From: Candidatus Nomurabacteria bacterium RIFCSPHIGHO2_01_FULL_41_71 | GTDB lineage: Bacteria > Patescibacteriota > Minisyncoccia > Phycocordibacterales > UBA9973 | Direction of reading: 5' to 3' | Length of the DNA stretch: 64,000 bases | Assembly: GCA_001785355.1 (NCBI GenBank) | Contig: MFTQ01000021.1 | Span: 4,033-68,032 of the forward strand | In this document: positions 1 to 63,078 of the stretch, one piece after another | Layout: each line of letters starts with the position of its first letter | Numbering within the stretch: the first letter of the stretch is position 1 | Program-made: the position numbers and the translations under genes | Notes under the pieces: generated by a model | Told to the model about the DNA's origin: nothing | Database searches by the model: none | The model's input: the letters and a program-made list of their open reading frames with translations, nothing else

Positions 1-1898
1 AAGTCCGAGAAGGTGAACCGTTTAGGAACAGAGAAGCGGTAATGTGTATTGTAAAACATTGGGGAAAAGATGAATATTTATGCCAAGAGTGGAAAGATTT
101 TTCAGGTGTTCGAACTCTTATATCTGGTGGTATAGAACCAGATGAAGATGTTGTTACCGCTGGCAAGCGTGAAATTTTAGAAGAGTCAGGTTTTTTGAAT
201 GCAAAGTTTATCAGGCAATTAGGTGGTTTTTCCTATGTAGAATTTTATCACCAAAGGAAGCAGACAAATATGCGAGCACGCTTCCGCTATCTTTATTTTG
301 AATTAGAAAATGGACAACGGGAAAAAATATCTGATAAAGAAAATAATCAACATCAATTTATCTGGAAAAAACAAAACGAAGTTGTGGATTTTTTAAACAT
401 TTCGGAAAAGGAAAGGATTTGGGAACTTTTTATTAATGGAAAAAAAGAAATTTTTACAGATGTTGGATATTTAGTAAATTCGGATAAGTTTGACGGTCTG
501 GATTCTAAAAAAGCAAAAAAAGAAATTGTAAAATTTATCGGTGCAAAGGAAAAAACAACCTTCAAACTTCGCGACTGGGTTTTTTCTAGGCAAAGGTACT
601 GGGGCGAGCCGATACCGCTCGTATTCTGTGAAAATTGTAGACGTCGGACGTCTCTGGAGACGTCCGACGTCTACAATGCGGGCTGGGTGCCAGTGCCGGA
701 TAAGGACTTGCCGGTTTTACTTCCCAAAGTAAAAACTTACAAGCCACGAGATGATGGCGAATCACCGCTCGCGGGGATGAAATCTTGGGTCAATGTGAAA
801 TGTCCGAAGTGTAAAGGTCCGGCCAGGAGGGAAACAGACACGATGCCGAATTGGGCAGGAAGCTCTTGGTATTTTTTGCGCTATACAGACCCAAAAAATA
901 AAAAAGAATTTGCATCACGGAAAAATCTGGAATATTGGACACCTGTGGATTGGTACAACGGGGGAATGGAGCACACTACTTTACACCTTTTATATTCTCG
1001 TTTTTGGCATAAATTTTTATATGATTTGAAGCTAGTGCCGACTATTGAGCCGTACGCGAAACGTACTTCGCATGGGATGATTTTGGCCGATGATGGGACA
1101 AAATTTTCAAAATCGAAAGGCAACGGAGTAGATCCGGATGATTTGGTAAAAACATACGGCGCAGACACTGTTCGTCTGTATGAAATGTTCATGGGGCCGT
1201 TTGATCAGGCGGTATCTTGGAGCACGGACAGCATGGTAGGACCGCGCAGATTTTTAGAGCGGGTGTGGCATATGTCAAGGACCGTCCTTGACAAACCTCA
1301 TCTCAGTCTTCTCCTGAAAGGAGAGGAGAAAGGGAACCCCTTCCCCTTTCAGGGGAAGGCGGGGGATGAGGTTGAACGCCTGTTGCATAAAACAATTAAG
1401 AAAGTATCGGAAGACATTGAAGCTATGCGTTTCAACACAGCAATTTCTACGCTCATGATTTTTGTGAATGAAATTGCTAAATTTGATTCTATCTCGCGGG
1501 ATGTTTACGAAAGATTTCTAAGGCTTCTGGCTCCGTTTGCTCCGCACATCACAGAAGAACTATGGAAAAATATTCACCTACCTCAAACCCCTTCCGAAGG
1601 AAGGGGCAGAACCGGGGCCAAATCTCTCTCCTTTGGGGAGGGCTCGGTAGAGGTGAAGTCAATTCATTTGAGTGAGTGGCCGAAATGGGACCCGAATTTG
1701 ATCAAAGACGAAGAGGCAAAGATTGTAATACAGGTAAACGGAAAAGTGAGAGCTGAAATTATGGTTAAGACAGACGAGGACGAAGAAACTATTAAACATC
1801 AAGTGTTGAATAGCGGGATTGTTTCTAAATACACCGTTGGCAAAGACCTCAAAAAAATGATTTATGTCAAGCACAGACTTATCAACATCGTGATTTAG
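1..1898 (+). CDS. leuS: Leucyl-tRNA synthetase, 5'-truncated by the window edge (frame open from nt 3). Unexpected Nudix-hydrolase box near the visible N-terminus
   Basis: LeuRS motifs: FKLRDWVFSRQRYWGEPIP, CENC...CPKC zinc knuckle, KFSKSK (KMSKS), GADTVRLY, anticodon-binding C-terminus. Nudix box GGIEPDEDVVTAGKREILEESGF at aa 29-51 of the visible frame. Several in-frame GC-rich palindromes. Confidence 0.85.
   Translation, partial: VREGEPFRNREAVMCIVKHWGKDEYLCQEWKDFSGVRTLISGGIEPDEDVVTAGKREILEESGFLNAKFIRQLGGFSYVEFYHQRKQTNMRARFRYLYFELENGQREKISDKENNQHQFIWKKQNEVVDFLNISEKERIWELFINGKKEIFTDVGYLVNSDKFDGLDSKKAKKEIVKFIGAKEKTTFKLRDWVFSRQRYWGEPIPLVFCENCRRRTSLETSDVYNAGWVPVPDKDLPVLLPKVKTYKPRDDGESPLAGMKSWVNVKCPKCKGPARRETDTMPNWAGSSWYFLRYTDPKNKKEFASRKNLEYWTPVDWYNGGMEHTTLHLLYSRFWHKFLYDLKLVPTIEPYAKRTSHGMILADDGTKFSKSKGNGVDPDDLVKTYGADTVRLYEMFMGPFDQAVSWSTDSMVGPRRFLERVWHMSRTVLDKPHLSLLLKGEEKGNPFPFQGKAGDEVERLLHKTIKKVSEDIEAMRFNTAISTLMIFVNEIAKFDSISRDVYERFLRLLAPFAPHITEELWKNIHLPQTPSEGRGRTGAKSLSFGEGSVEVKSIHLSEWPKWDPNLIKDEEAKIVIQVNGKVRAEIMVKTDEDEETIKHQVLNSGIVSKYTVGKDLKKMIYVKHRLINIVI
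637..674. repeat. 38-bp palindrome (18-bp arms, 2-nt centre) inside leuS, in-frame. Core GACGTCGGACGTC
   Basis: gtagacgtcggacgtctc-tg-gagacgtccgacgtctac read directly. Encodes extra RRRTSLETSDVY inside the LeuRS Zn knuckle. Confidence 0.9.
1274..1292. repeat. REP-like palindrome gtcaaggaccgtccttgac inside leuS. Same core as the REPs flanking the RAYT at 5764-6438
   Basis: Core aaggaccgtcctt shared with 5709-5737 and 6444-6472. Confidence 0.7.
1339..1359. repeat. GC-rich hairpin ccttcccct-ttc-aggggaagg inside leuS (in-frame)
   Basis: 9-bp perfect stem. One of a cluster of GC hairpins at 1296-1362 and 1588-1650 encoding low-complexity inserts. Confidence 0.7.
1588..1606. repeat. GC-rich hairpin ccccttcc-gaa-ggaagggg inside leuS (in-frame)
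   Basis: 8-bp perfect stem read directly. Confidence 0.7.
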
Positions 1899-5708: not shown

Positions 5709-5737
5709 AATTAAGCAAGGACCGTCCTTGCTTAATT
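5709..5737. repeat. REP palindrome aattaagcaagga-ccg-tccttgcttaatt upstream of RAYT-1, preceded by partial copies (5681-5708)
   Basis: 13-bp arms read directly; inverted copy at 6444-6472 downstream of the gene. Confidence 0.85.
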
Positions 5738-5763: not shown

Positions 5764-6438
5764 ATGTTACGCAAGGATCCATTTATCACCGGCGAATATT
5801 ATCATCTTTATAATCGTGGTATAGATAAAAGAGTAATATTCAAATCAAAAAAAGACTACGAGCGATTTATCATGCTTTTATATATTGCGAATACACAAAC
5901 AGAATCTTTTCGTTTGGATAATTTAATAAATCAACAGCATAAAACATTTAACGAAATTCTGGTATTAGATAGGGGTGAATTAATCATTTCTATTGGTGCA
6001 TGGTCTCTCATGACAAATCATTTTCATTTAATAGTAAGACAAGAAATCGATGGAGGAATTACTAAATTTATGAGAAAATTGGGGACAGGATACTCTATGT
6101 TTTTTAATATTAAATACCAAAGAACAGGTGCCTTGTTTGGCGGATTATTCAAATCAAAATTAATTGGAGTTGATGATAATTATATGCGACAATTATTCGG
6201 ATATATTCATATTAATCCCTTGGAAATAAAATTTCCTGATTGGCAAAAGCAAATCAAAAAACCTTTTAGTGAGATGAAAAAATTTCTTAGATTATATAAG
6301 TATTCCAGTTATCCCGATTATATTGAAGAGGATAGAGTAGAAAAAAATATATTAAATGCCAAAAATTTTCCTAAGTATTTTAATAATGCAAAATCCTTTA
6401 AAGATTTTATGGATGAATATTTCATCGAAAATAATTAA
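5764..6438 (+). CDS. IS200-like/REP-associated tyrosine transposase (RAYT) paralog 1
   Basis: GEYYHLYNRG N-terminus, HxH motif NHFHLIV, Y1-transposase fold hallmarks; flanked by cognate REP hairpins. Confidence 0.75.
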   Translation: MLRKDPFITGEYYHLYNRGIDKRVIFKSKKDYERFIMLLYIANTQTESFRLDNLINQQHKTFNEILVLDRGELIISIGAWSLMTNHFHLIVRQEIDGGITKFMRKLGTGYSMFFNIKYQRTGALFGGLFKSKLIGVDDNYMRQLFGYIHINPLEIKFPDWQKQIKKPFSEMKKFLRLYKYSSYPDYIEEDRVEKNILNAKNFPKYFNNAKSFKDFMDEYFIENN

Positions 6439-6443
6439 GCAAA

Positions 6444-6472
6444 AATTAAGCAAGGACGGTCCTTGCTTAATT
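6444..6472. repeat. REP palindrome (same family as 5709-5737) downstream of RAYT-1
   Basis: aattaagcaaggacggtccttgcttaatt. Confidence 0.85.
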
Positions 6473-6540
6473 TAAAGAGGGGCTTTAAAATTGCGATTTT
6501 TATGGTATCATTTAGTTAAGTCCGCCATGCGGGCTGTTTT

Positions 6541-8301: not shown

Positions 8302-8305
8302 ATAT

Positions 8306-10165
8306 ATGACAGACTTAAAATACATTCGAAATTTTAGTATCATTGCGCATATAGACCACGGCAAGTCTACCTTAGCAGATCGGATGTTGGAAATCACCCA
8401 TACTATTGAAGCGCGAAAAATGCGCGATCAAATACTTGACTCTATGGAACTTGAGCGCGAGCGGGGAATCACCATCAAGATGCAACCTGTTCGCATGGAA
8501 TATACAAACTTAGTACTCGGAGTACTAAGACTTAGTACTCCGAGTACTAAGACTAAATATATCTTAAATCTGATAGATACCCCGGGGCATATTGATTTTT
8601 CTTACGAGGTTTCCAGAGCGCTCAAGGCCGTGGAAGGTTCTATTTTATTGGTGGATTGCACCCAAGGAGTGCAGGCTCAGACTCTTACTACCCTTACCAT
8701 GGCCAGGGAAGGCGGACTTCGTATTATTCCGGTACTTTCTAAGATTGATTCTCCGCTTGCTCGAATAGAGGAAGTGAAAGAAGAAGTTAAACAGCTTTTA
8801 GGTTGTGGTGATGAGGAAGTGCTTTTGGTTTCTGGTAAGACCGGAGAAGGAGTGGAAAATCTGCTTCGTGAAGTAATAAAGCGTGTGCCGACACCTCGAG
8901 AAGATTATTCAGGAGACAATGTTTTACGCGCTCTTGTTTTCGATTTTAAGTATTCTAATCACAAAGGGGTAATAGTATTTGTGCGTATTCTGGATGGGGA
9001 AGTGAAGAAAGGAGATAACCTTCTCTTTTTGGTATCGGGAGAAAAATTTTCTTCTCTTGAAGTCGGAGTATTTACTCCGGAAGAAGTTTCTGCTGAATCA
9101 CTTTCATCCGGAGAAGTGGGATATATAGTAACTGGTATCAAGAGGCCGGGTATTGCTTCTGTCGGAGATACGATTACCATGTCCAAGAATCCTCTGCCCA
9201 CTCTTCCGGGATACATGAAGGCTATGCCGGTAGTATGGGCTTCCGTTTTTCCTGAAGATGCGGATGATTTCATAGAGTTAAAATTATCCTTAGGTAAGCT
9301 GAAGCTGTCTGATTCCGCTTTTTCTTATGAAGAAGAATCAAGCGGTTCACTCGGCCGGGGTTTCCGATGTGGATTTCTCGGGATGCTTCATTTAGAGATA
9401 ATTACCGAGAGGCTAAAACGTGAATTTGGACTAGAGCTTGTTATTACTACCCCCTCCATCACTTATGAAGTGGTAAAAAAGTCCTTTATAGGACAAGCAG
9501 GCAAAAGGGAGAAAATTTATTCCCCATACTTTTTCCCGGATGATGGCAGTGTTGAATCCGTATATGAACCATGGGTAAAAGCGCAAATAATCAGCCCCGC
9601 CGGATATTTGGGCGGTATTATGCAGCTTTTGTTCGAGCATGAAGCGGAAGTGGGCGAGACGCATAATTTTGGAGATAACAGATCGTCTATCTTGGTGGAA
9701 ATGCCGCTTCGGGAATTAATGCGCAATTTTTTCGACGAATTAAAAAGTATTTCCTCCGGTTATGCATCTATTTCTTATAAGCTTGGAGAGATGCGGAAGG
9801 CGGATGTGACCAGACTGGATATTCTGGTGGCTGACGAAGTGGTACCGGCATTTTCCAGGGTTGTGTCGAAAAAAAGAGTGGAAGAGGAAGCGGAGAAGGC
9901 AGTGGAGAAATTATATGGCCTTCTTCCTCGACAGATGTTTACTCTGAAGATTCAGGGAAGGGCTCTGGGGCGAATTATTTCTTCCCGCACTATTTCCGGT
10001 ATGAAGAAGGATGTAACCGCGCACATGTATGGAGGCGATATCACTCGTAAGATGAAACTTAGAGAAAAGCAAAAAAAAGGCAAAAAGAAAATGAAAGAAC
10101 GTGGGCGAGTAAATATTCCCCAAGATGTGTTTCTTAAAATGATGCGGTCGGGCAGAATTAACTAA
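8306..10165 (+). CDS. lepA: Elongation factor 4 (LepA)
   Basis: NFSIIAHIDHGKSTLADR G1 motif, DTPGHIDF, LepA C-terminal domain. Start moved to MTDLKYIRNF. Confidence 0.9.
   Translation: MTDLKYIRNFSIIAHIDHGKSTLADRMLEITHTIEARKMRDQILDSMELERERGITIKMQPVRMEYTNLVLGVLRLSTPSTKTKYILNLIDTPGHIDFSYEVSRALKAVEGSILLVDCTQGVQAQTLTTLTMAREGGLRIIPVLSKIDSPLARIEEVKEEVKQLLGCGDEEVLLVSGKTGEGVENLLREVIKRVPTPREDYSGDNVLRALVFDFKYSNHKGVIVFVRILDGEVKKGDNLLFLVSGEKFSSLEVGVFTPEEVSAESLSSGEVGYIVTGIKRPGIASVGDTITMSKNPLPTLPGYMKAMPVVWASVFPEDADDFIELKLSLGKLKLSDSAFSYEEESSGSLGRGFRCGFLGMLHLEIITERLKREFGLELVITTPSITYEVVKKSFIGQAGKREKIYSPYFFPDDGSVESVYEPWVKAQIISPAGYLGGIMQLLFEHEAEVGETHNFGDNRSSILVEMPLRELMRNFFDELKSISSGYASISYKLGEMRKADVTRLDILVADEVVPAFSRVVSKKRVEEEAEKAVEKLYGLLPRQMFTLKIQGRALGRIISSRTISGMKKDVTAHMYGGDITRKMKLREKQKKGKKKMKERGRVNIPQDVFLKMMRSGRIN
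8509..8551. repeat. 43-bp palindrome (two 21-bp AGTACT-containing units that are reverse complements of each other) inserted in-frame in lepA
   Basis: cttagtactcggagtactaag-a-cttagtactccgagtactaag. Adds ~14 aa (VLGVLRLSTPSTKT) between G1 and DTPGH. Confidence 0.85.
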
Positions 10166-10701: not shown

Positions 10702-12318
10702 TTACACTATGCAAAAGCGGGATTGGTTTAGTGGTAGAATGCGACCTTCCCAAGGTTGAGACAGGAGTTCGATTCTCCTATCCCGCACCATAAACGAACT
10801 AGACGGTTTTTTAGAAGCTGAAATGCGGGACGCGCGAAGCGCGTCCCAAGGATTCCCGCCGAATTTCCCAAACGAATTCAGAATTTTTGGCGCGCTGGCG
10901 CGCACTAATTTTTCGCCAAGAAGCAGGTTCGAGCCAAAGATTTCTTTGGCACAGACCTTTTTCGCAAAAAGGTCTGTATCCTGTGCGATTCCATTCAGGT
11001 TTTGTGCGACTTTTAGCCAATCGAGTAGCGGTTCGAGCCAATCATTGTGCTTGTGTGAAAGAGAGGTCATTTCTTCTTCGAGCGACTTCTTTTGCAAAAT
11101 CAATTTTGCTTTTTCTACACGATAGGTTTCCTTTTCAATATCTTGGTCAAGGTAAGTATTCAGAAGTCGCTCTAACTTTTGTGAAATGACAGATATTTTG
11201 GTTTCTTTCTCTTTCACACTAGCACCCACGGATTGGGCGGAGTTTTTGAAATCAGCTCGTGCCATTTTTTCCAGTTCCTCCGCCCAATCTCGTGGCAAAG
11301 AAACTTTTTGAATTAGGGATGATAACTGGCGATTAAGTTCTTCTTCCCGAATACAAGGTTGAGAACATTTTACATTTTTGTTTTTCTTTGTGCAGTGATA
11401 ATAAGTGTAATTATGCACATTTCCGTTCTTCTGCTTCTTAACCTTGTATTCGCCAGTTATCATCATTCCACATTCGGTGCAAGATAATAACCCGCAAAAT
11501 GGTTGAGGTTCATTTTTAGATTTTCGTTCGGGTTGTCCGCGGAGTTTCATCACTTTTTGCACCGAATCAAAAAGTTTCTTTGAAATGATTGGCTCGTGCT
11601 TGCCTTCGTGCAATTCTCCCGCATAGTTGAAAAGTCCAGTATAAAAAGGGTTTGAAAGAATAAAAGTCGCACGAGTTTTGTGGATTCTCTTTCCACCTCT
11701 CGAAACGATTCCGTTTTTCGCCAAAAAGTTTGAAATATCTTCCAGTCGTTGATTTCCTTTCGCGTATCTCTCAAAAGCCAAGCGGATAATTTTCGCTTTC
11801 TTCTTTTCCACTACAATCGTTTTTGTTCTACTGTCGTTGATATATCCCAAAGGAGCTTGGCTTGGAAATATTCCCATTCTCACTTTTTGGCGAAGACCTC
11901 GTTTCGTATTTTCTGAAAGAGAATCCACATAGTATTTGCTTTGGACAAATGCCATAGAGAGTGAAAATTTCCCTTGCGGAGTATTCTCAAACCAGTGCGA
12001 AGGGAATTTCATGCTCGCAAGTTTTCCGATGTCGAGTAAGTAGATAATTTGTCCGCCATCCACCGAATTACGGGCTAGACGATCGGGATGCCAACTGACG
12101 ATACCATTTGCCTCACCTCGTTCAATGCGCTTCAGCATTTGCCCGAAAATAGGTCTGCCGGGAATTTTCGCAGATTGTTTTTCGATAAATTCCTCAATGA
12201 CCTCTAAGTTTTGCTCTCGGGCAAATGCCCGCAATTCGGTGAGTTGAGCGTCAATACTCAAAACTTGTTTGTCTTCGACATCGGTGCTCTTGCGAGCATA
12301 CAAAAAGAATTTTTGCAT
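10702..12318 (-). CDS. Large serine recombinase (resolvase/invertase catalytic domain + recombinase domain + Zn-ribbon). 3' end reads antisense through IR-A and tRNA-Gly
   Basis: YARKSTDVEDKQVLSIDAQ catalytic-Ser motif at N-terminus, CTECG...CTKKNKNVKC zinc ribbon, coiled-coil. True stop uncertain because the ORF runs through a GC-rich repeat. Confidence 0.85.
   Translation of the reverse strand: MQKFFLYARKSTDVEDKQVLSIDAQLTELRAFAREQNLEVIEEFIEKQSAKIPGRPIFGQMLKRIERGEANGIVSWHPDRLARNSVDGGQIIYLLDIGKLASMKFPSHWFENTPQGKFSLSMAFVQSKYYVDSLSENTKRGLRQKVRMGIFPSQAPLGYINDSRTKTIVVEKKKAKIIRLAFERYAKGNQRLEDISNFLAKNGIVSRGGKRIHKTRATFILSNPFYTGLFNYAGELHEGKHEPIISKKLFDSVQKVMKLRGQPERKSKNEPQPFCGLLSCTECGMMITGEYKVKKQKNGNVHNYTYYHCTKKNKNVKCSQPCIREEELNRQLSSLIQKVSLPRDWAEELEKMARADFKNSAQSVGASVKEKETKISVISQKLERLLNTYLDQDIEKETYRVEKAKLILQKKSLEEEMTSLSHKHNDWLEPLLDWLKVAQNLNGIAQDTDLFAKKVCAKEIFGSNLLLGEKLVRASAPKILNSFGKFGGNPWDALRASRISASKKPSSSFMVRDRRIELLSQPWEGRILPLNQSRFCIV
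10717..10790 (+). tRNA. tRNA-Gly (anticodon CCC), CCA encoded
   Basis: Cloverleaf folded by hand: acceptor GCGGGAT/ATCCCGC, anticodon loop TTCCCAA, T-arm AGGAG-TTCGATT-CTCCT. Confidence 0.85.
10785..10878. repeat. IR-A: 94-bp perfect inverted repeat, begins in the tRNA-Gly 3' end. Partner at 12545-12638
   Basis: Reverse complement of 10785-10878 equals 12545-12638 base for base. Similarity continues imperfectly ~55 bp further (10879-10935 vs 12481-12544). Confidence 0.9.
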
Positions 12319-12336
12319 ATATTTTTCTTAAAGCGA

Positions 12337-12393
12337 AAATGGCTATTTTAGGTTGAAATCCTAACGTTAGTTAGAAAACTAAAATAGCCATTT
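12337..12393. promoter_or_regulatory. 57-bp perfectly symmetric site (15-bp arms + central 10-bp palindrome ctaacgttag with CG centre) 19 bp upstream of the recombinase start. Candidate recombination site or operator
   Basis: aaatggctattttag-gttgaaatc-ctaacgttag-ttagaaaa-ctaaaatagccattt read directly. Confidence 0.4.
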
Positions 12394-12544
12394 CCGCCAA
12401 CTAACTGATAATGGATTTCAACACAGTTAGTATAGCAAAAATTCTTTTTGTATCCAAAGCAAATACTTTGAATTTGTATCGCACGGGATTTCGAACCTGC
12501 TTCTTGGCGAAAAAACAGTGCGCATCGCCGAAGGCGGTGCTCCA

Positions 12545-34858: not shown

Positions 34859-34960
34859 GGCTACACAAGACCGCGACAATTCCTTTCGGAACTGCCCTGC
34901 ACCCTTTCGGGCACAGACCACGCGAGTAGGCGGCTTGTGTAGCCGTTTTTACCCGCGTGG
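34859..34960 (+). ncRNA. Candidate structured RNA / cis-regulatory leader: GC-rich nested and alternative hairpins in an AT-rich intergenic region (strand not established)
   Basis: 11-bp stem ggctacacaag...cttgtgtagcc enclosing two UUCG-type hairpins. Competing ccacgcg...cgcgtgg stem followed by T-rich run; a second cgcgtggttttt copy at 34814. Confidence 0.25.
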
Positions 34961-35158
34961 ATTTATTTTCACCATGCCATTTTACCGGTTTAGGTGTTGT
35001 AATTTCATAGTAGCTCTTTTTTGACCTAAAAACAACACAACTTGCATACTAAATTTGGTATGCTACAATTAAAGTAATTGAATATGGAATGATAGATCGG
35101 CCACATGGTTTAATTGCAAGTTTTGCAGTTAAGTCGGCCGTTTTTTTATTTAATATAC

Positions 35159-35822: not shown

Positions 35823-37583
35823 TTGATAAAGAGCGCAGGAAGATTTTGCTTAAAAGAAAAAAGTTGGCTATTATATAAGTATAATCACATGCGTAAGAAT
35901 AAAGATGAAAAACCTTATAAGAATGAGTATCTGATATACAATCGGAAAAGCACGGACGATCAAGATAACCAAAAAAACTCTATCTCATACCAAACGATTG
36001 AAGCAATTAAGTTTGCAAAAAGAGAAAAATTATCAATTGCAAAAGTTGATATTCAAGGATTTTGTAAGGGAGGAATAATAAGCGAAAAACATACTGGCTT
36101 CAAAGAAGACAATAAACTCACAATCGGCGCTGATGGCCGAAGCATACAATATCAAATTAACAGACCGAAATTTGAGCAGTTAGTCCATGCACTAATAAAT
36201 GGCGAATATAGAGGTGTCATATTTCTTTGTTGGGATAGAGCTAGCCGTAATAAAAATGACGACAACATTATACGCAAATTGATGAAATTTAATGATTTAG
36301 ATATTCGGTTCGTTCAAGCAAACTATGATCATACGAGTGCCGGAGAGCTACACATGGATGTTGATGGAATGTTTGCACAACACCACTCAAGGAATACTAG
36401 CGAGAAAGTAACAAATACAAACAGGAAGCTTCGTGCAGAAGGCGTATGCACCTATAAGGCCCCAATAGGATACTTAAACACTGGAGACCCTCGTAATAAA
36501 CCTTTTGATCCAGAGCGTGCTTCGTTGGTCAAACAACTATTTGAAAAATATGCAGAAGACACATGGAGTTTAGCTGACCTTGCCCGTTGGGCAAACGATA
36601 ATGGTTTGACCATGCGACCTGTTCGCCGAAAAAGAACTACCGAAGAAATGCTTCGTGATGAGGAAGTAAAAATTGAGCCGGTTGCCCGTCCTATTACTTT
36701 CAATCATATCCACAAGATACTTACTAACTTATTCTATATTGGAAAGGTGTTGGGGAATAATGGAGTGTATGTGAAAAGTATTAGTCATGAGGCGCTTGTT
36801 GAAGAAGATTTATTTTATAGGGTGCAGGGTCTTTTGAATAAGAAAAGAGTCAGCGTTCATTACAAAAATAAACTTTATTTCGCTTACAGAGGACTTATAC
36901 GCTGTGGTCATTGTGAGCGTGTGTATACTCCTTACAAAAATAAAATCAAACAAAAAGAGTATTACGGAGCGCGTTGTATGAAAAATTGCATTAACACAAA
37001 AAGAAACATTGATGTTGATTTTATTGAGCAAAAAGTCGGTGCAATCATGTTTAATCTTTCTTTTACCAAAGAAGAAAAAGCTGACATTGACAGCCAAGTG
37101 CGAGATGAAGTTTCTACACTTGAAGACAAGCGCGTAGCTCAAATTAAGGCCATTGATCAAGAGAAGAAAAAACTCAACGAGGATTTATCATACTTGCGTA
37201 AGAATAAACTTACCTTGCTCAAAAATGGCGTTTACACTGGACAGGATTATCTCAATGAAGAATCCGATATAGCAAAAAAACTTGAAAACCTCCGAGAGCA
37301 AGAGAAGTCAAATAATGTTTCAATGCAGGAAGTGGTCAAAGATGTGGTATTTCTTTCCGAACTTCTAGAAGACGCGTATCTGTATTACACTTTGGCAAAT
37401 CCCACAGAAAAACAACAAATTATTACAAAAGTATTTTCCGAACTTTTACTATCCGGAGAAACCTTGAATTATAAGTGTAGAAATGGATTTAAGGTGTTTG
37501 AAAACAAAAAATCTCTCTTATGTGACCCTGCGGGGAGTCGAACCCCGGTTAACGGATTGAAAACCCGTTGTCCTAACCATTAG
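35823..37583 (+). CDS. Large serine recombinase (integrase) 2. 3' end reads antisense through tRNA-Glu
   Basis: YLIYNRKSTDDQDNQKNSISYQ catalytic-Ser motif, recombinase domain, CGHCERVY...CMKNC zinc ribbon, long coiled-coil. Confidence 0.85.
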   Translation: MIKSAGRFCLKEKSWLLYKYNHMRKNKDEKPYKNEYLIYNRKSTDDQDNQKNSISYQTIEAIKFAKREKLSIAKVDIQGFCKGGIISEKHTGFKEDNKLTIGADGRSIQYQINRPKFEQLVHALINGEYRGVIFLCWDRASRNKNDDNIIRKLMKFNDLDIRFVQANYDHTSAGELHMDVDGMFAQHHSRNTSEKVTNTNRKLRAEGVCTYKAPIGYLNTGDPRNKPFDPERASLVKQLFEKYAEDTWSLADLARWANDNGLTMRPVRRKRTTEEMLRDEEVKIEPVARPITFNHIHKILTNLFYIGKVLGNNGVYVKSISHEALVEEDLFYRVQGLLNKKRVSVHYKNKLYFAYRGLIRCGHCERVYTPYKNKIKQKEYYGARCMKNCINTKRNIDVDFIEQKVGAIMFNLSFTKEEKADIDSQVRDEVSTLEDKRVAQIKAIDQEKKKLNEDLSYLRKNKLTLLKNGVYTGQDYLNEESDIAKKLENLREQEKSNNVSMQEVVKDVVFLSELLEDAYLYYTLANPTEKQQIITKVFSELLLSGETLNYKCRNGFKVFENKKSLLCDPAGSRTPVNGLKTRCPNH

Positions 37584-37593
37584 ACGACAGGGC
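37522..37593 (-). tRNA. tRNA-Glu (anticodon TTC), no CCA
   Basis: Minus-strand fold: acceptor GGCCCTG/CAGGGTC (one GT pair), anticodon stem ACGGG/TCCGT with loop TTTTCAA, T-arm CGGGG-TTCGACT-CCCCG. Confidence 0.75.
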
Positions 37594-37654
37594 CATGGCG
37601 GTATAGTAGCTCATTTTTGAAAAATTCGCAAAAAATGCTATAATCCGTCCGCGT

Positions 37655-38530: not shown

Positions 38531-39514
38531 TTACCTCGCGTGCAAGTAAAGATAAATATCTTCAAGCGCACGGACGGCATCGCCAGCCGCTATATTATTC
38601 TGGTGATAGAGCACGTTCGTGCAGTCTCCGGCGGCCCAGATACCCGGCACGTCAGTCTTGCCGGTGGATGGTTCAATTTTTATCCTGCCGATCTCGTCTA
38701 GGGAGAGTATATCTTTTACAAAATTGGTATTCGGAATCTGTCCGATCTCCACGAAAATTCCAGAAACTTTAAGTTCTTTTTCTTCGTCAGTTTTTTTATT
38801 TTTATATATTAATCCCTCTACGAATTTTTCACCTCTTACCTCCAGAATATCGGCATTTTTTATTACACTCATTTTCGGATTTTTTAAAACTTTTTCCACT
38901 GTAATTTCATCCGCTCGAAAAGTGTCGCTTCTGTTTATAAGCGTCACCGACTTGCAATACGCGAGTAGTTGGGCGGCTGTTTCAAAGCCCGCATTTCCGC
39001 CTCCTATGACCGCCACATCCATATCCGCAAAGAGTGGTCCATCGCAGGAAGCGCAGTAGGTAAGGCCCTTGTGTTCTAGTCGATCCGCGTTCTTGGCTTC
39101 GAGTTTTCTTCTGGCCGACCCGGTTGCCACCAGCACGGTCTTGGTTTCGAATTCTTCTCCTGTTTCTGTTTTTATCAGGAAGATTCTTTTGGACATTTCA
39201 GACGTTGGACGTCCGGTATTCGGATGTCCAACGTCTGAAACATCAGTCACTTTGGTTTCTTTCACTTCAAGTGTTTGCCCGCTTCCCGTATTAGCCATCA
39301 CGTGTTTCCTTAAATTTTCCGCCAGTTCAGCTCCGGAGAGGGAGGTGGTGCCGATCCAATTGTATACCTGTTCGGATACCACTGACTGCCCGCCCCATTC
39401 GGAGACGATAAGGAGGGTACGTAATTTTTTGCGCGCGGCATAAACCGCGGCGGCGGCTCCGGCGGGACCGCCGCCGATAATTATTAAATCGCATATCATA
39501 TTCACATTATACAC
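38531..39514 (-). CDS. trxB: Thioredoxin-disulfide reductase
   Basis: IIIGGGPAGAAAA FAD motif, redox-active CASCDG, NADPH GGGNAG motif. Confidence 0.85.
   Translation of the reverse strand: MYNVNMICDLIIIGGGPAGAAAAVYAARKKLRTLLIVSEWGGQSVVSEQVYNWIGTTSLSGAELAENLRKHVMANTGSGQTLEVKETKVTDVSDVGHPNTGRPTSEMSKRIFLIKTETGEEFETKTVLVATGSARRKLEAKNADRLEHKGLTYCASCDGPLFADMDVAVIGGGNAGFETAAQLLAYCKSVTLINRSDTFRADEITVEKVLKNPKMSVIKNADILEVRGEKFVEGLIYKNKKTDEEKELKVSGIFVEIGQIPNTNFVKDILSLDEIGRIKIEPSTGKTDVPGIWAAGDCTNVLYHQNNIAAGDAVRALEDIYLYLHAR
39196..39240. repeat. Imperfect 45-bp palindrome with GACGTTGGACGTCC core inserted in-frame in trxB
   Basis: tttcagacgttggacgtccgg-tat-tcggatgtccaacgtctgaaa. Encodes SDVGHPNTGRPTSEMS. 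Core nearly identical to the leuS palindrome at 637-674. Confidence 0.8.
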
Positions 39515-40713: not shown

Positions 40714-40797
40714 ATTTTCTTGATAAAATTAATCCGATTGGTATGTCGGGCTTGTATATGGGCATACTACCACTAGTCCGAAAAAAAGCAAACCCCA

Positions 40798-40818
40798 CTT
40801 GGAGGCAAGACCTCCAAG
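40798..40818. repeat. REP hairpin cttggagg-CAAGA-cctccaag (family cognate to RAYT-2), plus adjacent half-copy
   Basis: Copies also at 41272-41293 (inside RAYT-2 ORF) and 41496-41516. Confidence 0.85.
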
Positions 40819-40835
40819 TTCCCTCCAAGTTCGAA

Positions 40836-41480
40836 TTAATCAAATTCAAAGTTTTTGACCTCTTCCTTTCTATTACATGTAGTTTTCCAAGTTTCTAGTG
40901 CAAATTTCTCGTATTCTTTTTTGGATTTGAATTGGCCAAGAATCATAGATTTTTCACAAAAATTGATATTACTAGATTGGGTATATTCTATCCAACTTGA
41001 CATGTTTAACGATTTTTTAATTACCCCATTTTTGTCATAGTTGTTTAAATTTATATAAGCGCCAACTTGAAGTAAATACTCATTTGAATTTATGTGTTTA
41101 CTTTTAAATTTTCCCTGAAAGAGTGAACCCGATCTCTTATTTCTTTCGTTAAAATACATAGTGTAACCAGTTCCAAGTCGTTGCATAAATTTTTCCACTC
41201 CTTTTTCCACAAGGGGAGTGAGAAGAAAGTGATAATGATTAGGATTCAAACAGTAAGTTACAAATCTTACCAACTTGGAGGTCTTGCCTCCAAGTTGCTT
41301 TTCTTTTACAAAACTATTCTCATACAAACTACCAATGGGATTTTTAGTATTAAATTCTTTCATACTTTGAAAAAATCTTCCCAAATCTTTTTTATCGGAA
41401 AATATATTTCTTTTATCTACGCCCCTATTATAAATATGATAATACTCTCCTGGCAGGAAGGCCATTTTTCTCATAGACAT
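40836..41480 (-). CDS. IS200-like/RAYT-type tyrosine transposase paralog 2, inserted between ftsA and ftsZ
   Basis: GEYYHIYNRG, HYHFLLTP HxH motif. One REP copy inside the ORF encodes KQLGGKTSKLV in-frame. Confidence 0.7.
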   Translation of the reverse strand: MSMRKMAFLPGEYYHIYNRGVDKRNIFSDKKDLGRFFQSMKEFNTKNPIGSLYENSFVKEKQLGGKTSKLVRFVTYCLNPNHYHFLLTPLVEKGVEKFMQRLGTGYTMYFNERNKRSGSLFQGKFKSKHINSNEYLLQVGAYINLNNYDKNGVIKKSLNMSSWIEYTQSSNINFCEKSMILGQFKSKKEYEKFALETWKTTCNRKEEVKNFEFD

Positions 41481-41495
41481 ACCTAAATTATAGCA

Positions 41496-41516
41496 CTTGG
41501 AGGCAAGACCTCCAAG
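41496..41516. repeat. REP hairpin (RAYT-2 family) upstream of RAYT-2
   Basis: cttggaggcaagacctccaag. Confidence 0.85.
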
Positions 41517-41520
41517 TGGA

Positions 41521-46082: not shown

Positions 46083-46141
46083 AATGTGTATTATAACAAA
46101 CTGTGCCTTTTGAGTTATCCACAGGCAAGACTTGCCAGAGC

Positions 46142-46163
46142 TTGCCAAAGCAAGGCTTTGGCA
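46142..46163. repeat. REP hairpin ttgccaaag-CAAGG-ctttggcaa (family cognate to RAYT-3)
   Basis: Copies at 46453-46478 (inside the RAYT-3 ORF) and 46881-46913 (14-bp arms). Confidence 0.85.
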
Positions 46164-46177
46164 GTAAACATGAGTGT

Positions 46178-46873
46178 ATGTCTATTCGAAAAATTCCATT
46201 TGTCCAGAGGGAGTTTTACCATATTTTTAGCAGGGGTAATAGTAAACAAGATATATTTTTAGATGATAAAGACAGGGAGCGTTTTACTCAGTTGCTGTAT
46301 CTTTGTAACTCTACAAAGAATGTGAATTACAGGGAAAATATTGTTAGGACTAATATAATCGCATGGGAGTTTGATAGGGGAGAAACAATTATTGCAATAG
46401 GCGCATGGGTTTTGATGTCTAATCATTTTCATCTCTATGTAACCCCAAAAAAGTTGCCAAAGCAAGGCTTTGGCAACTTTGAGAATAGCCTTACGGCATT
46501 CATGCATAAACTTCTTACTTCATATTCAAAATATTTTAATAAAAAATACAATAGAACAGGTAGTTTGTTTGAAAGTAAATTCAAATCTGTTCACATCAAG
46601 AGTGATCCTCAGGCGAAATATAATTTTTCATATATTCATTTGAATCCGATAAAATTAATTGACCGTAAATGGCGTGAGAATGGAATTAAGGATTTTAAAA
46701 AAGCTAAAAAGTTTTTGAAAGACTATAAATGGTCAAGTTATTTGGATTATAAAGGTGTCATTCGTCCGGAAAATAAGATTTTAGACAGAAAAAATTTTCT
46801 GGATTATTTTCAAAATATAAAGGATTTTGATTCTGAAATTCTTGAATGGCTTAAATTTGGGGAAGAAGAATAA
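46178..46873 (+). CDS. IS200-like/RAYT-type tyrosine transposase paralog 3
   Basis: REFYHIFSRG, SNHFHLYVTP. Internal REP encodes KKLPKQGFGNFE in-frame directly after the HxH motif. Start moved to MSIRK. Confidence 0.7.
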   Translation: MSIRKIPFVQREFYHIFSRGNSKQDIFLDDKDRERFTQLLYLCNSTKNVNYRENIVRTNIIAWEFDRGETIIAIGAWVLMSNHFHLYVTPKKLPKQGFGNFENSLTAFMHKLLTSYSKYFNKKYNRTGSLFESKFKSVHIKSDPQAKYNFSYIHLNPIKLIDRKWRENGIKDFKKAKKFLKDYKWSSYLDYKGVIRPENKILDRKNFLDYFQNIKDFDSEILEWLKFGEEE

Positions 46874-46880
46874 GGAATTA

Positions 46881-46913
46881 CCAAATTGCCAAAGCAAGGC
46901 TTTGGCAATTTGG
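46881..46913. repeat. REP hairpin (RAYT-3 family), extended 14-bp arms
   Basis: ccaaattgccaaag-caagg-ctttggcaatttgg. Confidence 0.85.
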
Positions 46914-46914
46914 T

Positions 46915-47225
46915 AAAAAAGACAAATAAATATGCCTCGAAAGTCGAAGACTTCGAGGCGCTTTTGGGCGATTGGAATCAATCGCCCGATTTGTACCGTG
47001 GGCCGGAAACTCTTTGCCTCGCCCGCGTCAAGAACGGGGCAAAAAGACCTTTCGCCGGACCTTGCACTCCGGCTCCCCCGGCTCCACGGTATTTTCGATA
47101 TTAACACAGATTTTTTCTTGATTAAAAAGTTATCCACACCCTTCGTTTGCAAGGGTTTCACGCCGTGGTTTATAATGCGTATCAAGTGGGAAAAAGTGGG
47201 AAAAATGGGGATAAGTAATTTTTAG
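46915..47225. other. GC-rich hairpin-dense non-coding region upstream of mraZ (candidate structured RNA or leader)
   Basis: Perfect 8-bp hairpins gcctcgaa...ttcgaggc and ggcgattg-gaat-caatcgcc; GC content far above the local average; gtgggaaaaa direct repeat. Confidence 0.2.
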
Positions 47226-47232
47226 AAAATTT

Positions 47233-47670
47233 ATGCTGATCGGAGAGTACATTCACACAATAGACGAGAAGAATCGGGTATCCTTGCCTTTTAAGTTTCG
47301 CAAAGAGATGGGCAGAAAAATTATTATCACCCCGGGGCTCGGTCGATGCTTGTTTGTTTTCACAAGCAAAGAATGGGAAAAAGTTGCTAAAAAACTTTCC
47401 GATTCGGATTCCGATTTATCTTTTTTAAAAGCAGACCAGCGAAGTTTTAACAGATATATGTTTGGTCGAGCGGCGGAAGTGGAAGTGGATTCGATCGGGC
47501 GGATACTGATACCGGAATTTTTGCAGGAAGGGATACGGCTTCGGGACAAGGCGGCGATCATCGGGGTATCCGACAGGGTAGAGGTTTGGAACGAAAAAGC
47601 ATGGTCGGAGCAGAAGCAAAAAGTTGCCAAAGAAGCGGAGCGGTTAGCGGAGAAGCTTGGAAATGCATAA
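47233..47670 (+). CDS. mraZ: Transcriptional regulator MraZ
   Basis: Duplicated DxxxR SpoVT/AbrB-like halves; position at head of dcw cluster. Confidence 0.85.
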   Translation: MLIGEYIHTIDEKNRVSLPFKFRKEMGRKIIITPGLGRCLFVFTSKEWEKVAKKLSDSDSDLSFLKADQRSFNRYMFGRAAEVEVDSIGRILIPEFLQEGIRLRDKAAIIGVSDRVEVWNEKAWSEQKQKVAKEAERLAEKLGNA

Positions 47671-48526
47671 GACAGTTCTTTTAAATGAAACAATAGATGG
47701 CCTTGATCTGAAAGAAGATTCAGTGGTGCTTGATGCCACATTCGGCGGTGGAGGACACTCGGCAGAAATTTTGAAAAGATTTCCCGAGGTAAAAATCATA
47801 GCTTTAGATCAAGATGCAAGTGTATGGAAGTCTCAGCCGGGAATTTCTTTTCATAACAAGAACTTCAGAAATTTAGATGAAGTATTGAAAAAGGAAGGAA
47901 AAGAAAAAGTTGACGGAATTATTTTTGATTTAGGCTTGAGCTCCGATCAGCTGGAAAATTCCGGACGGGGATTTTCTTTCATGAAGGACGAGCCGCTCTT
48001 CATGACCATGAAAGAAAATCCCCGTCCGGAAGATCTCACCGCCCGGGAGATTGTAAACGATTGGGACGAACAAAATCTCGCGGATATCATCTATGGTTTT
48101 GGCGAAGAAAGATATGGCAGAAGGATCGCCGGAGCGATCGCGCAAGCGAGAAAACAGAAACCGATTGAAACCACTTTTGATTTGGTGGGGATTATCAAAA
48201 GAGCGGTGCCGGCGCGATACAGAGAAGGGAGACTGCACTTTGCCACCAAGACCTTCCAGGCAATCCGCATAGCGGTAAACGACGAGCTCGAGGCGCTTCG
48301 AGAGGGGCTCAAAGTAGGTTTTGAATCTCTTCGATCGGGGGGCAGGATGGCGGTCATAAGCTTTCACAGTCTGGAAGACAGGATTACAAAGAGATTTTTT
48401 AAAGATAAACAGAAAGCAGGAGAGGCGATTTTAATAAACAAAAAGCCCATTGTGGCCAAAAGAGAAGAAATAAAAAATAATCCAAGATCAAGAAGCGCGA
48501 AATTGAGAATAATTCAAAAACAATGA
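47657..48526 (+). CDS. rsmH: 16S rRNA (cytosine1402-N4)-methyltransferase RsmH
   Basis: SAM motif DATFGGGGHS, FHSLEDR. Confidence 0.9.
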   Translation: MEMHKTVLLNETIDGLDLKEDSVVLDATFGGGGHSAEILKRFPEVKIIALDQDASVWKSQPGISFHNKNFRNLDEVLKKEGKEKVDGIIFDLGLSSDQLENSGRGFSFMKDEPLFMTMKENPRPEDLTAREIVNDWDEQNLADIIYGFGEERYGRRIAGAIAQARKQKPIETTFDLVGIIKRAVPARYREGRLHFATKTFQAIRIAVNDELEALREGLKVGFESLRSGGRMAVISFHSLEDRITKRFFKDKQKAGEAILINKKPIVAKREEIKNNPRSRSAKLRIIQKQ

Positions 48527-61332: not shown

Positions 61333-63078
61333 ATGAAAGAAGAAATCAAAAAATTTTTTAAGGGAGATTTGGAAAGTGAGCGGGAGATACTTGAAAAGTA
61401 TTCACATGACGCGAGTCTTTTAATGGTACGGCCTAAATTGGTTTTATTTCCAAAAGATTCCGAAGATGTGAAAAACTTAGTTAAGTGGGTGGGAGACAAT
61501 TGTGTTAGGCAAGACCTAGCACAAAAGTATGGGAAACTTTCCATTACGCCGCGTTGTGCGGGTACGGACATGTCCGGCGGGGCTATCGGGGAATCTATAA
61601 TTTTAGATTTCACCAGATATATGAATCATCTGGTGAAGTTTATGGATGATATTCCACAGGCGTCCAGAAAGCAAAAGACGTCTCCCCAAAATTCTTCCGC
61701 TTTTGGAGAGAAGTCTTTTACGATTACTGTCCAGCCGGGAATGTTTTATCGGGATTTTGAGAAAATTACGTTAGAAAAAGGATTAATTTTGCCCTGTTAT
61801 ACGGCTTCCAAGAGTCTAAACGCCATGGGCGGGATGTATGGCAATAATTCTGCCGGCGAACGTACCCTTAAATATGGCAAAACGGAAGATTATATTTTAT
61901 CAGCCAAGATAGTTTTCGCGGACGGGATTGAGAGGGTTGTAAAGTCTTTTGCCCTAAATGAGATTTCAAAACAAGAAGAAATTTATAAAAAAACTTATGA
62001 ACTAATCAGACAGAATGAAGAAGAGATAAAAAGGGCAAGGCCGAACGTGCACAAAAATTCGGCCGGTTATAGCGTATGGAATGTCATCCGCCTAAAAAAT
62101 TCTTCTCTTGTTTTTGACTTAAATAAACTTTTAGTCGGCTCGCAGGGGACATTGGGGATTGTGACGGAGATCACCTTCAAATTAGTTTCCCAGACGAAGC
62201 ACTCCAAGCTGGTAGTTATATTTATGAATGATCTTGCTCCGCTTGGCGGTTTGGTGGATGAAATTTTAGCTCTTTCTCCGGAGACGCTGGAGGCCTATGA
62301 CGACAAGACTATGCGCCTGGCCGTGAAATTTTTCCCTGATTTTTTAAAAAATAAAGGATTTATCGGGATGCTTGAATTAATGCGGTCATTTCTTCCGGAA
62401 TTTGGAATGATGCTTGTTTCCGGATTTCCAAAATTAATATTACTTGCCGAATTTGCCGGTCAAAGTGAAAATGATGTGCAAAAAAAATGTCTAGAATTAA
62501 AAAATAAAATCAAGGGTTTCAAACTCAAAATTCATATCACCAAAGACGAAAACGAAGCGAATAAATATTGGAATATTCGGCGGGAGAGCTTTGCTCTTTT
62601 GCGCAAGCATGTGCGTGGCATGCGCACAGCTCCTTTTATAGACGATATAATCGTACGACCGGAATTCTTGCCGAAGTTTTTGCCGGAGCTAAATTCTATT
62701 TTAAAAAAGTATGATCTGATCTACACCTTGGCGGGACACGCCGGAGACGGAAATTTCCATATTATTCCCCTGATGGATTTCTCTCGACCGGATACGAGCA
62801 GGATAATTTTAGAACTTTCCGACAAGGTATATGATCTAGTGCTTCGCTATCACGGCTCGATTACCGCCGAACACAACGATGGCCTGATTCGCACTCCGTA
62901 TTTGAATAAAATGTATTCTCCCGCCATGCTTCAAATTTTCAAAAAAATAAAAGAAATCTTTGATCCGAAAAATATTTTTAACCCCGGCAAGAAAATTCCA
63001 ACTCAAAATCAAGGTGGTACTAAAGAATACATAACAAAGCATATTGCGGCAGAACACAAAATTACACACAGAGTTTAG
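61333..63078 (+). CDS. FAD-binding oxidoreductase (FAD_binding_4 / GlcD-D-lactate dehydrogenase-like)
   Basis: PCMH-type FAD-binding domain, C-terminal FAD-oxidase_C. Confidence 0.65.
   Translation: MKEEIKKFFKGDLESEREILEKYSHDASLLMVRPKLVLFPKDSEDVKNLVKWVGDNCVRQDLAQKYGKLSITPRCAGTDMSGGAIGESIILDFTRYMNHLVKFMDDIPQASRKQKTSPQNSSAFGEKSFTITVQPGMFYRDFEKITLEKGLILPCYTASKSLNAMGGMYGNNSAGERTLKYGKTEDYILSAKIVFADGIERVVKSFALNEISKQEEIYKKTYELIRQNEEEIKRARPNVHKNSAGYSVWNVIRLKNSSLVFDLNKLLVGSQGTLGIVTEITFKLVSQTKHSKLVVIFMNDLAPLGGLVDEILALSPETLEAYDDKTMRLAVKFFPDFLKNKGFIGMLELMRSFLPEFGMMLVSGFPKLILLAEFAGQSENDVQKKCLELKNKIKGFKLKIHITKDENEANKYWNIRRESFALLRKHVRGMRTAPFIDDIIVRPEFLPKFLPELNSILKKYDLIYTLAGHAGDGNFHIIPLMDFSRPDTSRIILELSDKVYDLVLRYHGSITAEHNDGLIRTPYLNKMYSPAMLQIFKKIKEIFDPKNIFNPGKKIPTQNQGGTKEYITKHIAAEHKITHRV

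Follow-up and report, generated by a model that had tools for sequence, protein, structure and literature searches.

Rickettsia palindromic elements (RPEs; Ogata et al. 2000) are reportedly selfish palindromes that have inserted in-frame into essential genes encoding proteins, where they appear to be tolerated in surface regions. Coding regions are also entered by the double-hairpin elements and GC-cluster or 'byp' elements of fungal mitochondria, which are very short mobile elements built of nested hairpins. Repetitive extragenic palindromic (REP) sequences, REPINs and their RAYT transposases, together termed 'REPtrons', form a further group (Nunvar 2010; Bertels & Rainey 2011, PMC3116915, PMC3337134; Messing 2012, PMC3479197); they are understood mainly from Gammaproteobacteria, as extragenic repeats, and their target choice and present mobility are open questions of the field. 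Intragenic REPs tagged with GTAG or CGTC have been described in other phyla, both as single units and as head-to-head dimers, with dimers encoding 20-30 aa, and RPE-4 and RPE-6 were equated with the CGTC-tagged type (Di Nocera, De Gregorio & Rocco 2013, PMC3733652). Here, we consider a 64-kb stretch of Candidatus Nomurabacteria bacterium RIFCSPHIGHO2_01_FULL_41_71 (64,000 nucleotides of contig MFTQ01000021.1; hereafter the window), which has a G+C content of ~40% and whose closest proteins come from Nomurabacteria/Paceibacteria-type Patescibacteria. Two palindromes of this window, one in a trxB-like gene and one in leuS, are most probably copies of a dispersed REP/REPIN-type family associated with RayT-like HUH/Y1 transposases in Patescibacteria. 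The two elements (of a type here called class A) and their host genes are, in window coordinates:

39196 to 39240: class-A hairpin doublet (REPIN-like) in the trxB-like gene; plus strand, TTTCAGACGTTGGACGTCCG gtatt CGGATGTCCAACGTCTGAAA
38531 to 39514, minus strand: host gene, encoding a thioredoxin-reductase/AhpF-family flavoprotein (trxB-like); start probably the ATG at 39499
634 to 677: class-A hairpin doublet in leuS, ATTGTAGACGTCGGACGTCTC tg GAGACGTCCGACGTCTACAAT
1 to 1898, plus strand: host gene, 3' part of leuS, truncated by the window start; the full protein (P0121) has 1028 aa

In the trxB-like gene, the palindrome arms (39196-39215 and 39221-39240) are 20 nt long with a single mismatch and enclose a 5-nt loop, and each arm is itself nested, with a 7-bp stem, a 3-nt centre and a second 7-bp stem. 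The full 45 nt correspond to 15 codons, in-frame and without a stop, whose translation includes ...SDVGHPNTGRPTSE... and which sit at a turn of the protein (...KV..I.K-NG-..F.VKT...). The leuS arms (634-654 and 657-677) are 21 nt long, perfect and separated by a 2-nt loop; this palindrome is likewise in-frame, reads C-RRRTSLETSDVYNA-GW and directly follows the CxxC of a zinc knuckle. The statement of the initial annotation that both palindromes are in-frame and stop-free was confirmed. Further upstream in leuS, at 42-600, a Nudix hydrolase domain (PF00293) lies within the synthetase and is found in nearly all of its 120 closest homologues.

The core that the two palindromes had been proposed to share, GACGTYGGACGTC, was borne out: searched on both strands with at most one mismatch, it has six matches in the 64-kb window, which correspond to the four arms, against 0.05 expected, and none of 100 shuffles reached six. 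It is translated in different frames, as GAC GTT GGA (DVG, within DVGR) in trxB and as AGA CGT CGG (RRR, within RRRT) in leuS; thus, the likeness is in the DNA, and no common peptide is selected. As single-stranded DNA (ssDNA), the trxB and leuS hairpins fold with -21.7 and -24.4 kcal/mol and z-scores of -7.1 and -9.3, respectively; for the hairpins folded as DNA, the values overall are -21 to -24 kcal/mol, with z-scores of -7 to -11. An Rfam scan found no family at the hairpins.

The same trxB palindrome, mismatch included, is present in an independent assembly (L002) that is 99.93% identical over 1522 nt. The match of L002 to the window runs up to 39448, and the sequence beyond is unrelated. 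This break (window 39448-39476; L002 1-989) falls at a quasi-palindrome with 14-nt arms that encodes the FAD-binding motif GGGPAGAAAA, and it probably reflects either chimeric assembly or rearrangement at a conserved motif.

Comparison with orthologues, which the initial annotation had put forward as a check, revealed many empty sites. About 70 of 82 trxB loci, mostly from species-representative genomes, have the short turn KV..I.K-NG-..F.VKT without any insert. The trxB protein of the window is indeed lengthened, by ~10-13 residues relative to insert-free orthologues and not by exactly the 15 that had been suggested. The LeuS of the window is 14 residues longer, after the second Cys, than insert-free orthologues; in most of the orthologues C-x-x-C-G-(V/W)VPVP is uninterrupted, and a few relatives carry shorter inserts beginning with the same RRRTS. 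These alignments show that the trxB and leuS palindromes are derived insertions and that the uninterrupted C-x-x-C-G-(V/W)VPVP is the ancestral form of LeuS. At the trxB turn, the query and its 120 closest proteins (121 sequences in all) divide as follows:

GACGT-family insert: 23 of 121 sequences
EALLP..GSKAS palindrome: 18 of 121 sequences
PKAL..SALG palindrome: 18 of 121 sequences
RTVL..RTVLE palindrome: 7 of 121 sequences
DDPEK-type insert: 5 of 121 sequences
other inserts: 21 of 121 sequences
nothing inserted: 29 of 121 sequences

At least five unrelated palindrome families occupy the same turn. In the DNA of six trxB loci the inserts are hairpins of differing sequence, and the unrelated palindromes in L006, L019 and L202 share the nested plan of the GACGT doublets. 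Insert class is independent of similarity in the rest of the protein (identity 0.80-0.83 within a class and 0.82 between classes); among nearest neighbours that share 90-94% identity, a different class or the lack of an insert is frequent, and only 34 of the 121 sequences share their class with the nearest neighbour. Because close relatives carry different palindrome families or none, turnover at this site is fast, and repeated hits on a few permissive loops combined with strong selection would explain it. LeuS has at least three comparable hot spots, with an RTVL-type peptide at a leuS site in two orthologues. A search of the fetched loci with regular expressions for the EALLP, PKAL and RTVL palindromes, and for a further unit found in lepA (described below), returned already-known copies only.

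Other variable segments were observed in both proteins. In leuS, hypervariable in-frame segments lie at 1290-1370 (PHLSLLLKGEEKGNPFPFQGKAGDEV, with an inverted repeat at 1308-1358) and at ~1570-1660 (PQTPSEGRGRTGAKSLSFGEGSVEV); at both, orthologues carry varied recurring peptides, including a RTVLKEVSPRTVL palindrome, or nothing. The trxB-like protein has a second length-variable spot ~12 residues upstream of the hairpin site (window ~39270-39300), where the variants (G-SGQ, KSTENPNA, TGKMTSS and an insert of up to 30 Gly/Ser/Thr-rich residues in P0082) are not obviously palindromic.

The family extends far beyond the window. JGI/ENA metagenome contigs were scanned with an exact two-arm pattern (GACGTYGGACRTC, 0-16 nt, GAYGTCCRACGTC), which was found in at least 118 stretches, nearly all of 33-48% G+C; the 64-kb window holds two doublets. 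The metagenome total is a lower bound, and the copy counts that follow refer to the matches listed. Inside open reading frames (ORFs) of at least 200 aa lie 76 of 122 copies, distributed over 42 protein clusters, with topA, purH, smc, purL, rnj (RNase J), gatB, uvrC, ligA, dnaG and a PBP (PBP2) as Pfam-confirmed hosts. Every genic copy preserves the reading frame, and the core, which is stop-free in all six frames, is read in all three. The remaining copies, about one third, lie mostly in short spacers between co-directional ORFs, like classical REPs. The frequency check called for by the initial annotation thus came out in favour of a family, most of whose copies are in long ORFs; its view of a family of elements inserting into coding regions stands, as a DNA-level family that lands in genes, although it did not name the kind of repeat. 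Given the intergenic third, the family is not specific to coding sequence.

In anatomy, the element is an inverted doublet of a 15-17 nt unit, which consists of a 7-bp stem round a 1-3 nt centre, as in CGGACGT-TGG-ACGTCCG and AGACGTC-G-GACGTCT. The units are spaced 1-16 nt apart, and the whole palindrome is 31-63 nt long. The doublet consensus reads TTNCR-GACGTYGGACGTC-YG, a short spacer and the reverse complement, giving hairpin arms of 17-21 bp as ssDNA; conservation reaches ~5 nt past the core on both sides, as the TTNCR. Several related contigs share an occupied host site (in gatB, uvrC, dnaG, purH, rnj and topA), indicating that class-A copies are also inherited vertically, and the hairpin pattern was not found in viral contigs, which thus give no sign of phage carriage. 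Host proteins often contain more than one element: the PurH of L197 has an intact class-A copy and a shortened one (LSDVPRPTSD) at a site occupied in L088, and the DnaG of L175 has an additional PLPTSPEGGGGKPSPLGRVGRG segment of another repeat type.

Candidate transposases are encoded in the same window. A Pfam scan matched PF01797 (Y1_Tnp, IS200-like Y1 transposase) to a 214-aa ORF with 31.2 bits, against a gathering score of 23, and the protein of this gene (gene 1) served as the seed with which paralogues 2 and 3 and the metagenome homologues were found. The genes and the hairpins next to them are:

40836 to 41480, minus strand: RayT-like HUH tyrosine transposase gene 1, 214 aa; HUH motif NHYHFLL, Tyr motif AYINLNN
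40797 to 40819: REP1 hairpin, ACTTGGAGG tcttg CCTCCAAGT, with an extra half copy beside it, just downstream of gene 1
41273 to 41295: REP1 copy in-frame inside gene 1, encoding KQLGGKTSKL; low pLDDT in the model
41495 to 41517: REP1 copy just upstream of gene 1
5764 to 6438, plus strand: RayT-like paralogue 2, 33% identical to gene 1
5709 to 5737: REP2 hairpin, AATTAAGCAAGGAC c GTCCTTGCTTAATT, upstream of paralogue 2
6443 to 6473: REP2 hairpin in inverted orientation (centre g), downstream of paralogue 2
46103 to 46873, plus strand: RayT-like paralogue 3; start probably near 46178 (MSIRKI)
46142 to 46164: REP3 copy, one mismatch, at the 5' end of paralogue 3 or ahead of it
46450 to 46480: REP3 copy, AAAGTTGCCAAAGC aag GCTTTGGCAACTTT, in-frame inside paralogue 3
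46878 to 46916: REP3 copy, TTACCAAATTGCCAAAGC aag GCTTTGGCAATTTGGTAA, just downstream of paralogue 3

Each of the three genes is flanked by a palindrome of its own, and those flanking paralogues 2 and 3 are the strongest 'terminator-like' hairpins in a scan of the window. Gene 1 is inserted between ftsA and ftsZ, a pair with nothing between them in the relatives L001, L201 and L202. RayT-like genes are common in this Paceibacteria/Nomurabacteria lineage, with a cognate hairpin flanking each.

The GACGT-type units are found beside RayT-like genes in other contigs. Of the 118 class-A loci (728 kb), 11 contain such genes, compared with three hits in the trxB-selected loci (~1.29 Mb including the window). 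GACGT-type units flank a RayT-like gene in L104, L128, L129, L140, L152 and L192, the flanking pair being mostly in inverted orientation. A full class-A doublet does so in L128, L129 and L192, and a single inverted unit in L104 and L140. The unit in L140 (AGACGT tgg/cca ACGTCT) is that of trxB, and the one in L104 (GAGACGTC c/g GACGTCTC) is identical to the unit of the leuS element, GAGACGTC(C/G)GACGTCT. In L089 and L148, a class-A doublet lies in-frame inside the RayT-like gene itself. Many contigs with a RayT-like gene are shorter than 2 kb, which suggests that the hairpins probably break assemblies.

Motifs and fold agree in the assignment of these proteins. The HUH (N-H-x-H) and Y-x-x-x-N motifs are invariant, PF01797 is matched by 14 of 15 proteins, and the best PDB profile match is 4er8, the TnpA-REP of E. 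coli. An AlphaFold (AF2) model with a pLDDT (predicted local distance difference test) score of 84.9 retrieved 4er8_A as the top Foldseek match (E 1.3e-5), followed by the TnpA proteins of IS608 and ISDra2; the low-confidence stretch of the model corresponds to the in-frame copy of the hairpin. Homologues number more than 5000; JGI names some of them 'REP element-mobilizing transposase RayT', and the named sources are Nomurabacteria, Zambryskibacteria and Paceibacterota. A phmmer search with an approximate IS608 TnpA sequence as query gave no match in 2 Mb of loci.

Other repeats and mobile-element genes lie nearby. One of them has the nested build of the trxB and leuS elements with a different sequence, being a doublet of AGTACTCSGAGTACT:

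8506 to 8554: in-frame palindrome in lepA (8303 to 10165, plus strand), AGTACTC G GAGTACT, spacer, AGTACTC C GAGTACT

The initial annotation had overlooked this palindrome, at which the lepA protein is ~11 aa longer than Thermus EF4. No other copy of the unit was found in the window or the fetched loci, and we treat the palindrome as a sister REP family. In rsmH/mraW (47657-48526, plus strand), a 25-nt perfect inverted repeat with a 23-nt spacer (47959-48031) leaves the protein length unchanged; its arms encode NSGRGFSFM, which is conserved, and MKENPRPE, and the corresponding arms are complementary at 13, 14 and 22 of 25 positions in three orthologues. This repeat looks like a quasi-palindrome perfected in situ or a conserved structure. 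An FAD-linked oxidase gene (61333-63078, plus strand) contains an in-frame imperfect palindrome, AAAAGACGTCTCCCCAAAA..TTTTGGAGAGAAGTCTTTT (61673-61719), which encodes KQKTSPQNSSAFGEKS within the FAD_binding_4 domain, there ~30 residues longer than the Pfam profile, and which may be a decayed element.

Large serine recombinase genes at 10702-12318 (minus strand) and 35823-37583 (plus strand) abut or overlap tRNA-Gly (10717-10790) and tRNA-Glu (37522-37594), a position that suggests integrated elements, and an inverted repeat at 12333-12397 lies next to the first of them. The window also has an Rfam match to the LOOT RNA (RF03000) at 34875-34996 on the minus strand (66.4 bits, above the gathering score). 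Finally, many Paceibacteria genomes share a conserved hairpin, AACAAAAGGCAAGC-loop-GCTTGCCTTTTGTT, whose position is the same throughout, close to the ybeY start and ~3 kb upstream of trxB (L003 7077-7110, L053 7020-7055, L066 6938-6971 and ~20 other trxB loci).

The elements thus form a family at the DNA level, with diverse host genes and with hairpins associated with RayT-like genes of the right motifs and fold. By analogy with REPtrons, RayT-like HUH/Y1 transposases would bind, cut and join the hairpins on ssDNA and so move copies in trans. Insertions would land anywhere, and selection would retain intergenic copies together with those coding copies that keep the frame, are stop-free and lie in surface loops able to tolerate them. 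Translation presumably turns the coding copies that are retained into 10-15 additional residues.

Several points weigh against assigning the palindromes to a RayT-mobilized family. RAYT-driven REPIN transposition itself has been only partly demonstrated experimentally, for Gammaproteobacteria. The RayT-like protein scores 29 bits against the NCBIfam RAYT equivalog NF047646, which has a cut-off of 80, and is thus a distant relative and not an equivalog. The GTAG tag of classical RAYT-associated REPs is not conserved; apart from the leuS copy, only a few have it. Within the window, no RayT-like gene is flanked by GACGT-type hairpins, the three present having other hairpins, and the REP1-3 hairpins occur beside their own genes only. 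Among pairs of filled and empty trxB sites (L001-L201 and L202-L203), none is closer than ~80-83% DNA identity, so that these alleles are too diverged to read junctions, target sequence or recency of movement.

These points bear in part on the question of whether a different mover is at work. The palindromes might be mobile or copied through MITE-like (miniature inverted-repeat transposable element) behaviour with another transposase, through recombination, or through template switching between hairpins at replication forks, in which case the association with RayT-like genes would arise because those genes are themselves favoured targets. We regard this as unlikely. It draws on the hairpins inside RayT-like ORFs, owing to which adjacency could partly reflect targeting, on the window's want of a GACGT-flanked RayT gene, and on CGTC-type REPs in other phyla that have no dedicated transposase (PMC3733652). 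However, a cognate hairpin on both sides, mostly inverted and differing between paralogues, is the arrangement of REPtrons, which was seen repeatedly, in more than ten independent contigs; no other transposase was seen near the copies, the window's two serine recombinases adjoin no copy, and no direct target-site duplication is evident. Far less probable still is an origin in place by template-switch errors (quasi-palindrome correction), with the shared core a product of mutational or sequence bias. The rsmH repeat, perfect in the window, imperfect in orthologues and neutral for protein length, probably illustrates such a process, and the arms of class-A elements are nearly always concordant at two variable positions, which arm-to-arm correction could maintain; indeed, template switching may keep hairpin arms perfect in this lineage. 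Yet it cannot account for one and the same 13-20 nt sequence at over 100 unrelated sites, which include 42 protein clusters, intergenic DNA and the surroundings of transposase genes, and the inserts add sequence absent from orthologues instead of converting existing sequence.

Selection for a signal is similarly hard to credit as the source of the family. The hairpins could regulate their host genes as RNA or DNA (by pausing, as RNase sites or by attenuation), or a peptide (DVGRP..GRPTSE) could be selected; the hairpins are very stable, and some sites (gatB, uvrC, dnaG and purH) keep a copy across several lineages. Against this, the same DNA occurs in three frames and between genes, hence without a common peptide, and close relatives have no insert or an unrelated palindrome at the same site. 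In addition, the arm mismatches on the sense strand are A.C in five of five cases and G.U in none, which points away from selection on an RNA stem, although the number is small, and Rfam gives no match. An assembly or sequencing artefact is the most improbable account of all: metagenome assemblies can produce fold-back chimeras, and L002 diverges from the window at a short quasi-palindrome, but assemblies of many samples, from JGI, ENA, Logan and NCBI, contain the same elements, which preserve the reading frame and, in related genomes, occupy the same site by inheritance. Three candidates were rejected: restriction-site clusters or paired operators by the variable unit spacing (1-16 nt), an intron or bypass element by the frame kept in every genic copy, and a selected peptide motif by the use of all three frames.

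With RayT-like transposases retained as the probable movers, the turnover at the trxB turn raises a more speculative prospect. Essential proteins could have permissive loops that serve as sites of exchange, at which palindrome families are repeatedly replaced or lost within <10% protein divergence through hairpin-targeted integration, that is, with new elements entering at resident hairpins. We put this forward tentatively, as a doubtful but distinct idea; if true, the RayT/REPIN system would steadily supply housekeeping proteins with variation in their surface loops.

Several hairpin families with matching RayT-like genes thus occur in an uncultured lineage whose genomes are reduced and densely coding, and its retained copies lie mostly in essential genes. 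The many orthologous sites that are filled, empty or replaced offer natural material for studying how targets are chosen, how arms are maintained and how elements turn over. For protein annotation, 10-15 residue inserts of this kind in Patescibacteria metagenome proteins would be repeat DNA and not lineage-specific functional loops. We found no description of such elements in Patescibacteria or the Candidate Phyla Radiation (CPR) in the open-access literature, and the two RAYT surveys consulted do not mention these phyla.

Among known systems, REP/REPIN-RAYT REPtrons (PMC3116915, PMC3337134, PMC3479197) are alike in their short palindromic units, of 20-40 bp in REP systems and 15-17 nt here, in the inverted doublets that form a long hairpin, probably in the many dispersed copies, in an IS200-like HUH/Y1 gene flanked by inverted cognate units with a separate unit for each paralogue, and in the fold of the transposase, which is closest to E. 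coli TnpA-REP (4er8). They differ in that classical REPs are extragenic, whereas most copies here (76 of 122 listed) are genic and in-frame; Pseudomonas REPINs measure roughly 100 bp, compared with 35-50 bp here; and the GTAG tag at the 5' end of the unit is not conserved here, where the flank consensus is TTNCR. Three RayT-like genes in 64 kb also contrast with 1.3-1.8 per replicon (PMC5581495), and the copies inside transposase ORFs, the Patescibacteria hosts and a protein below the cut-off of the NCBIfam RAYT equivalog set the present system further apart.

The intragenic REPs of other phyla (PMC3733652) resemble the present elements in lying in-frame in known proteins, to which they add tens of residues, with many replication, repair and tRNA-synthetase hosts, and in the occurrence of different REPs at about the same recB site in two Xanthomonas species. 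Intragenic copies are a minority there, however, and Patescibacteria are not among the phyla listed. The CGTC-tagged type has an unpaired terminal CGTC, an 8-9 bp stem starting with A/T pairs, a 4-5 nt loop and a CCA tail, whereas the CGTC here is within the stem as part of GACGTC, in a 7-bp stem with a 1-3 nt centre (PMC3733652). MITEs have terminal inverted repeats and target-site duplications; here, by contrast, the whole element is one hairpin, and its flanks are palindromic without direct duplication. Rickettsia RPEs share in-frame insertion in essential protein-coding genes of a small-genome bacterium and are set apart by length and host, RPE-1 being ~100-150 bp, compared with 31-63 bp in Patescibacteria. 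RPEs are not known to have a transposase of their own, whereas the units here are flanked by RayT-like genes. Organellar byps, which ribosomes bypass, can lie out of frame, in contrast to the genic copies described here, all of which keep the frame. Patescibacteria would be a new host phylum for REP/REPIN-type elements, a kind of selfish DNA that is already known.

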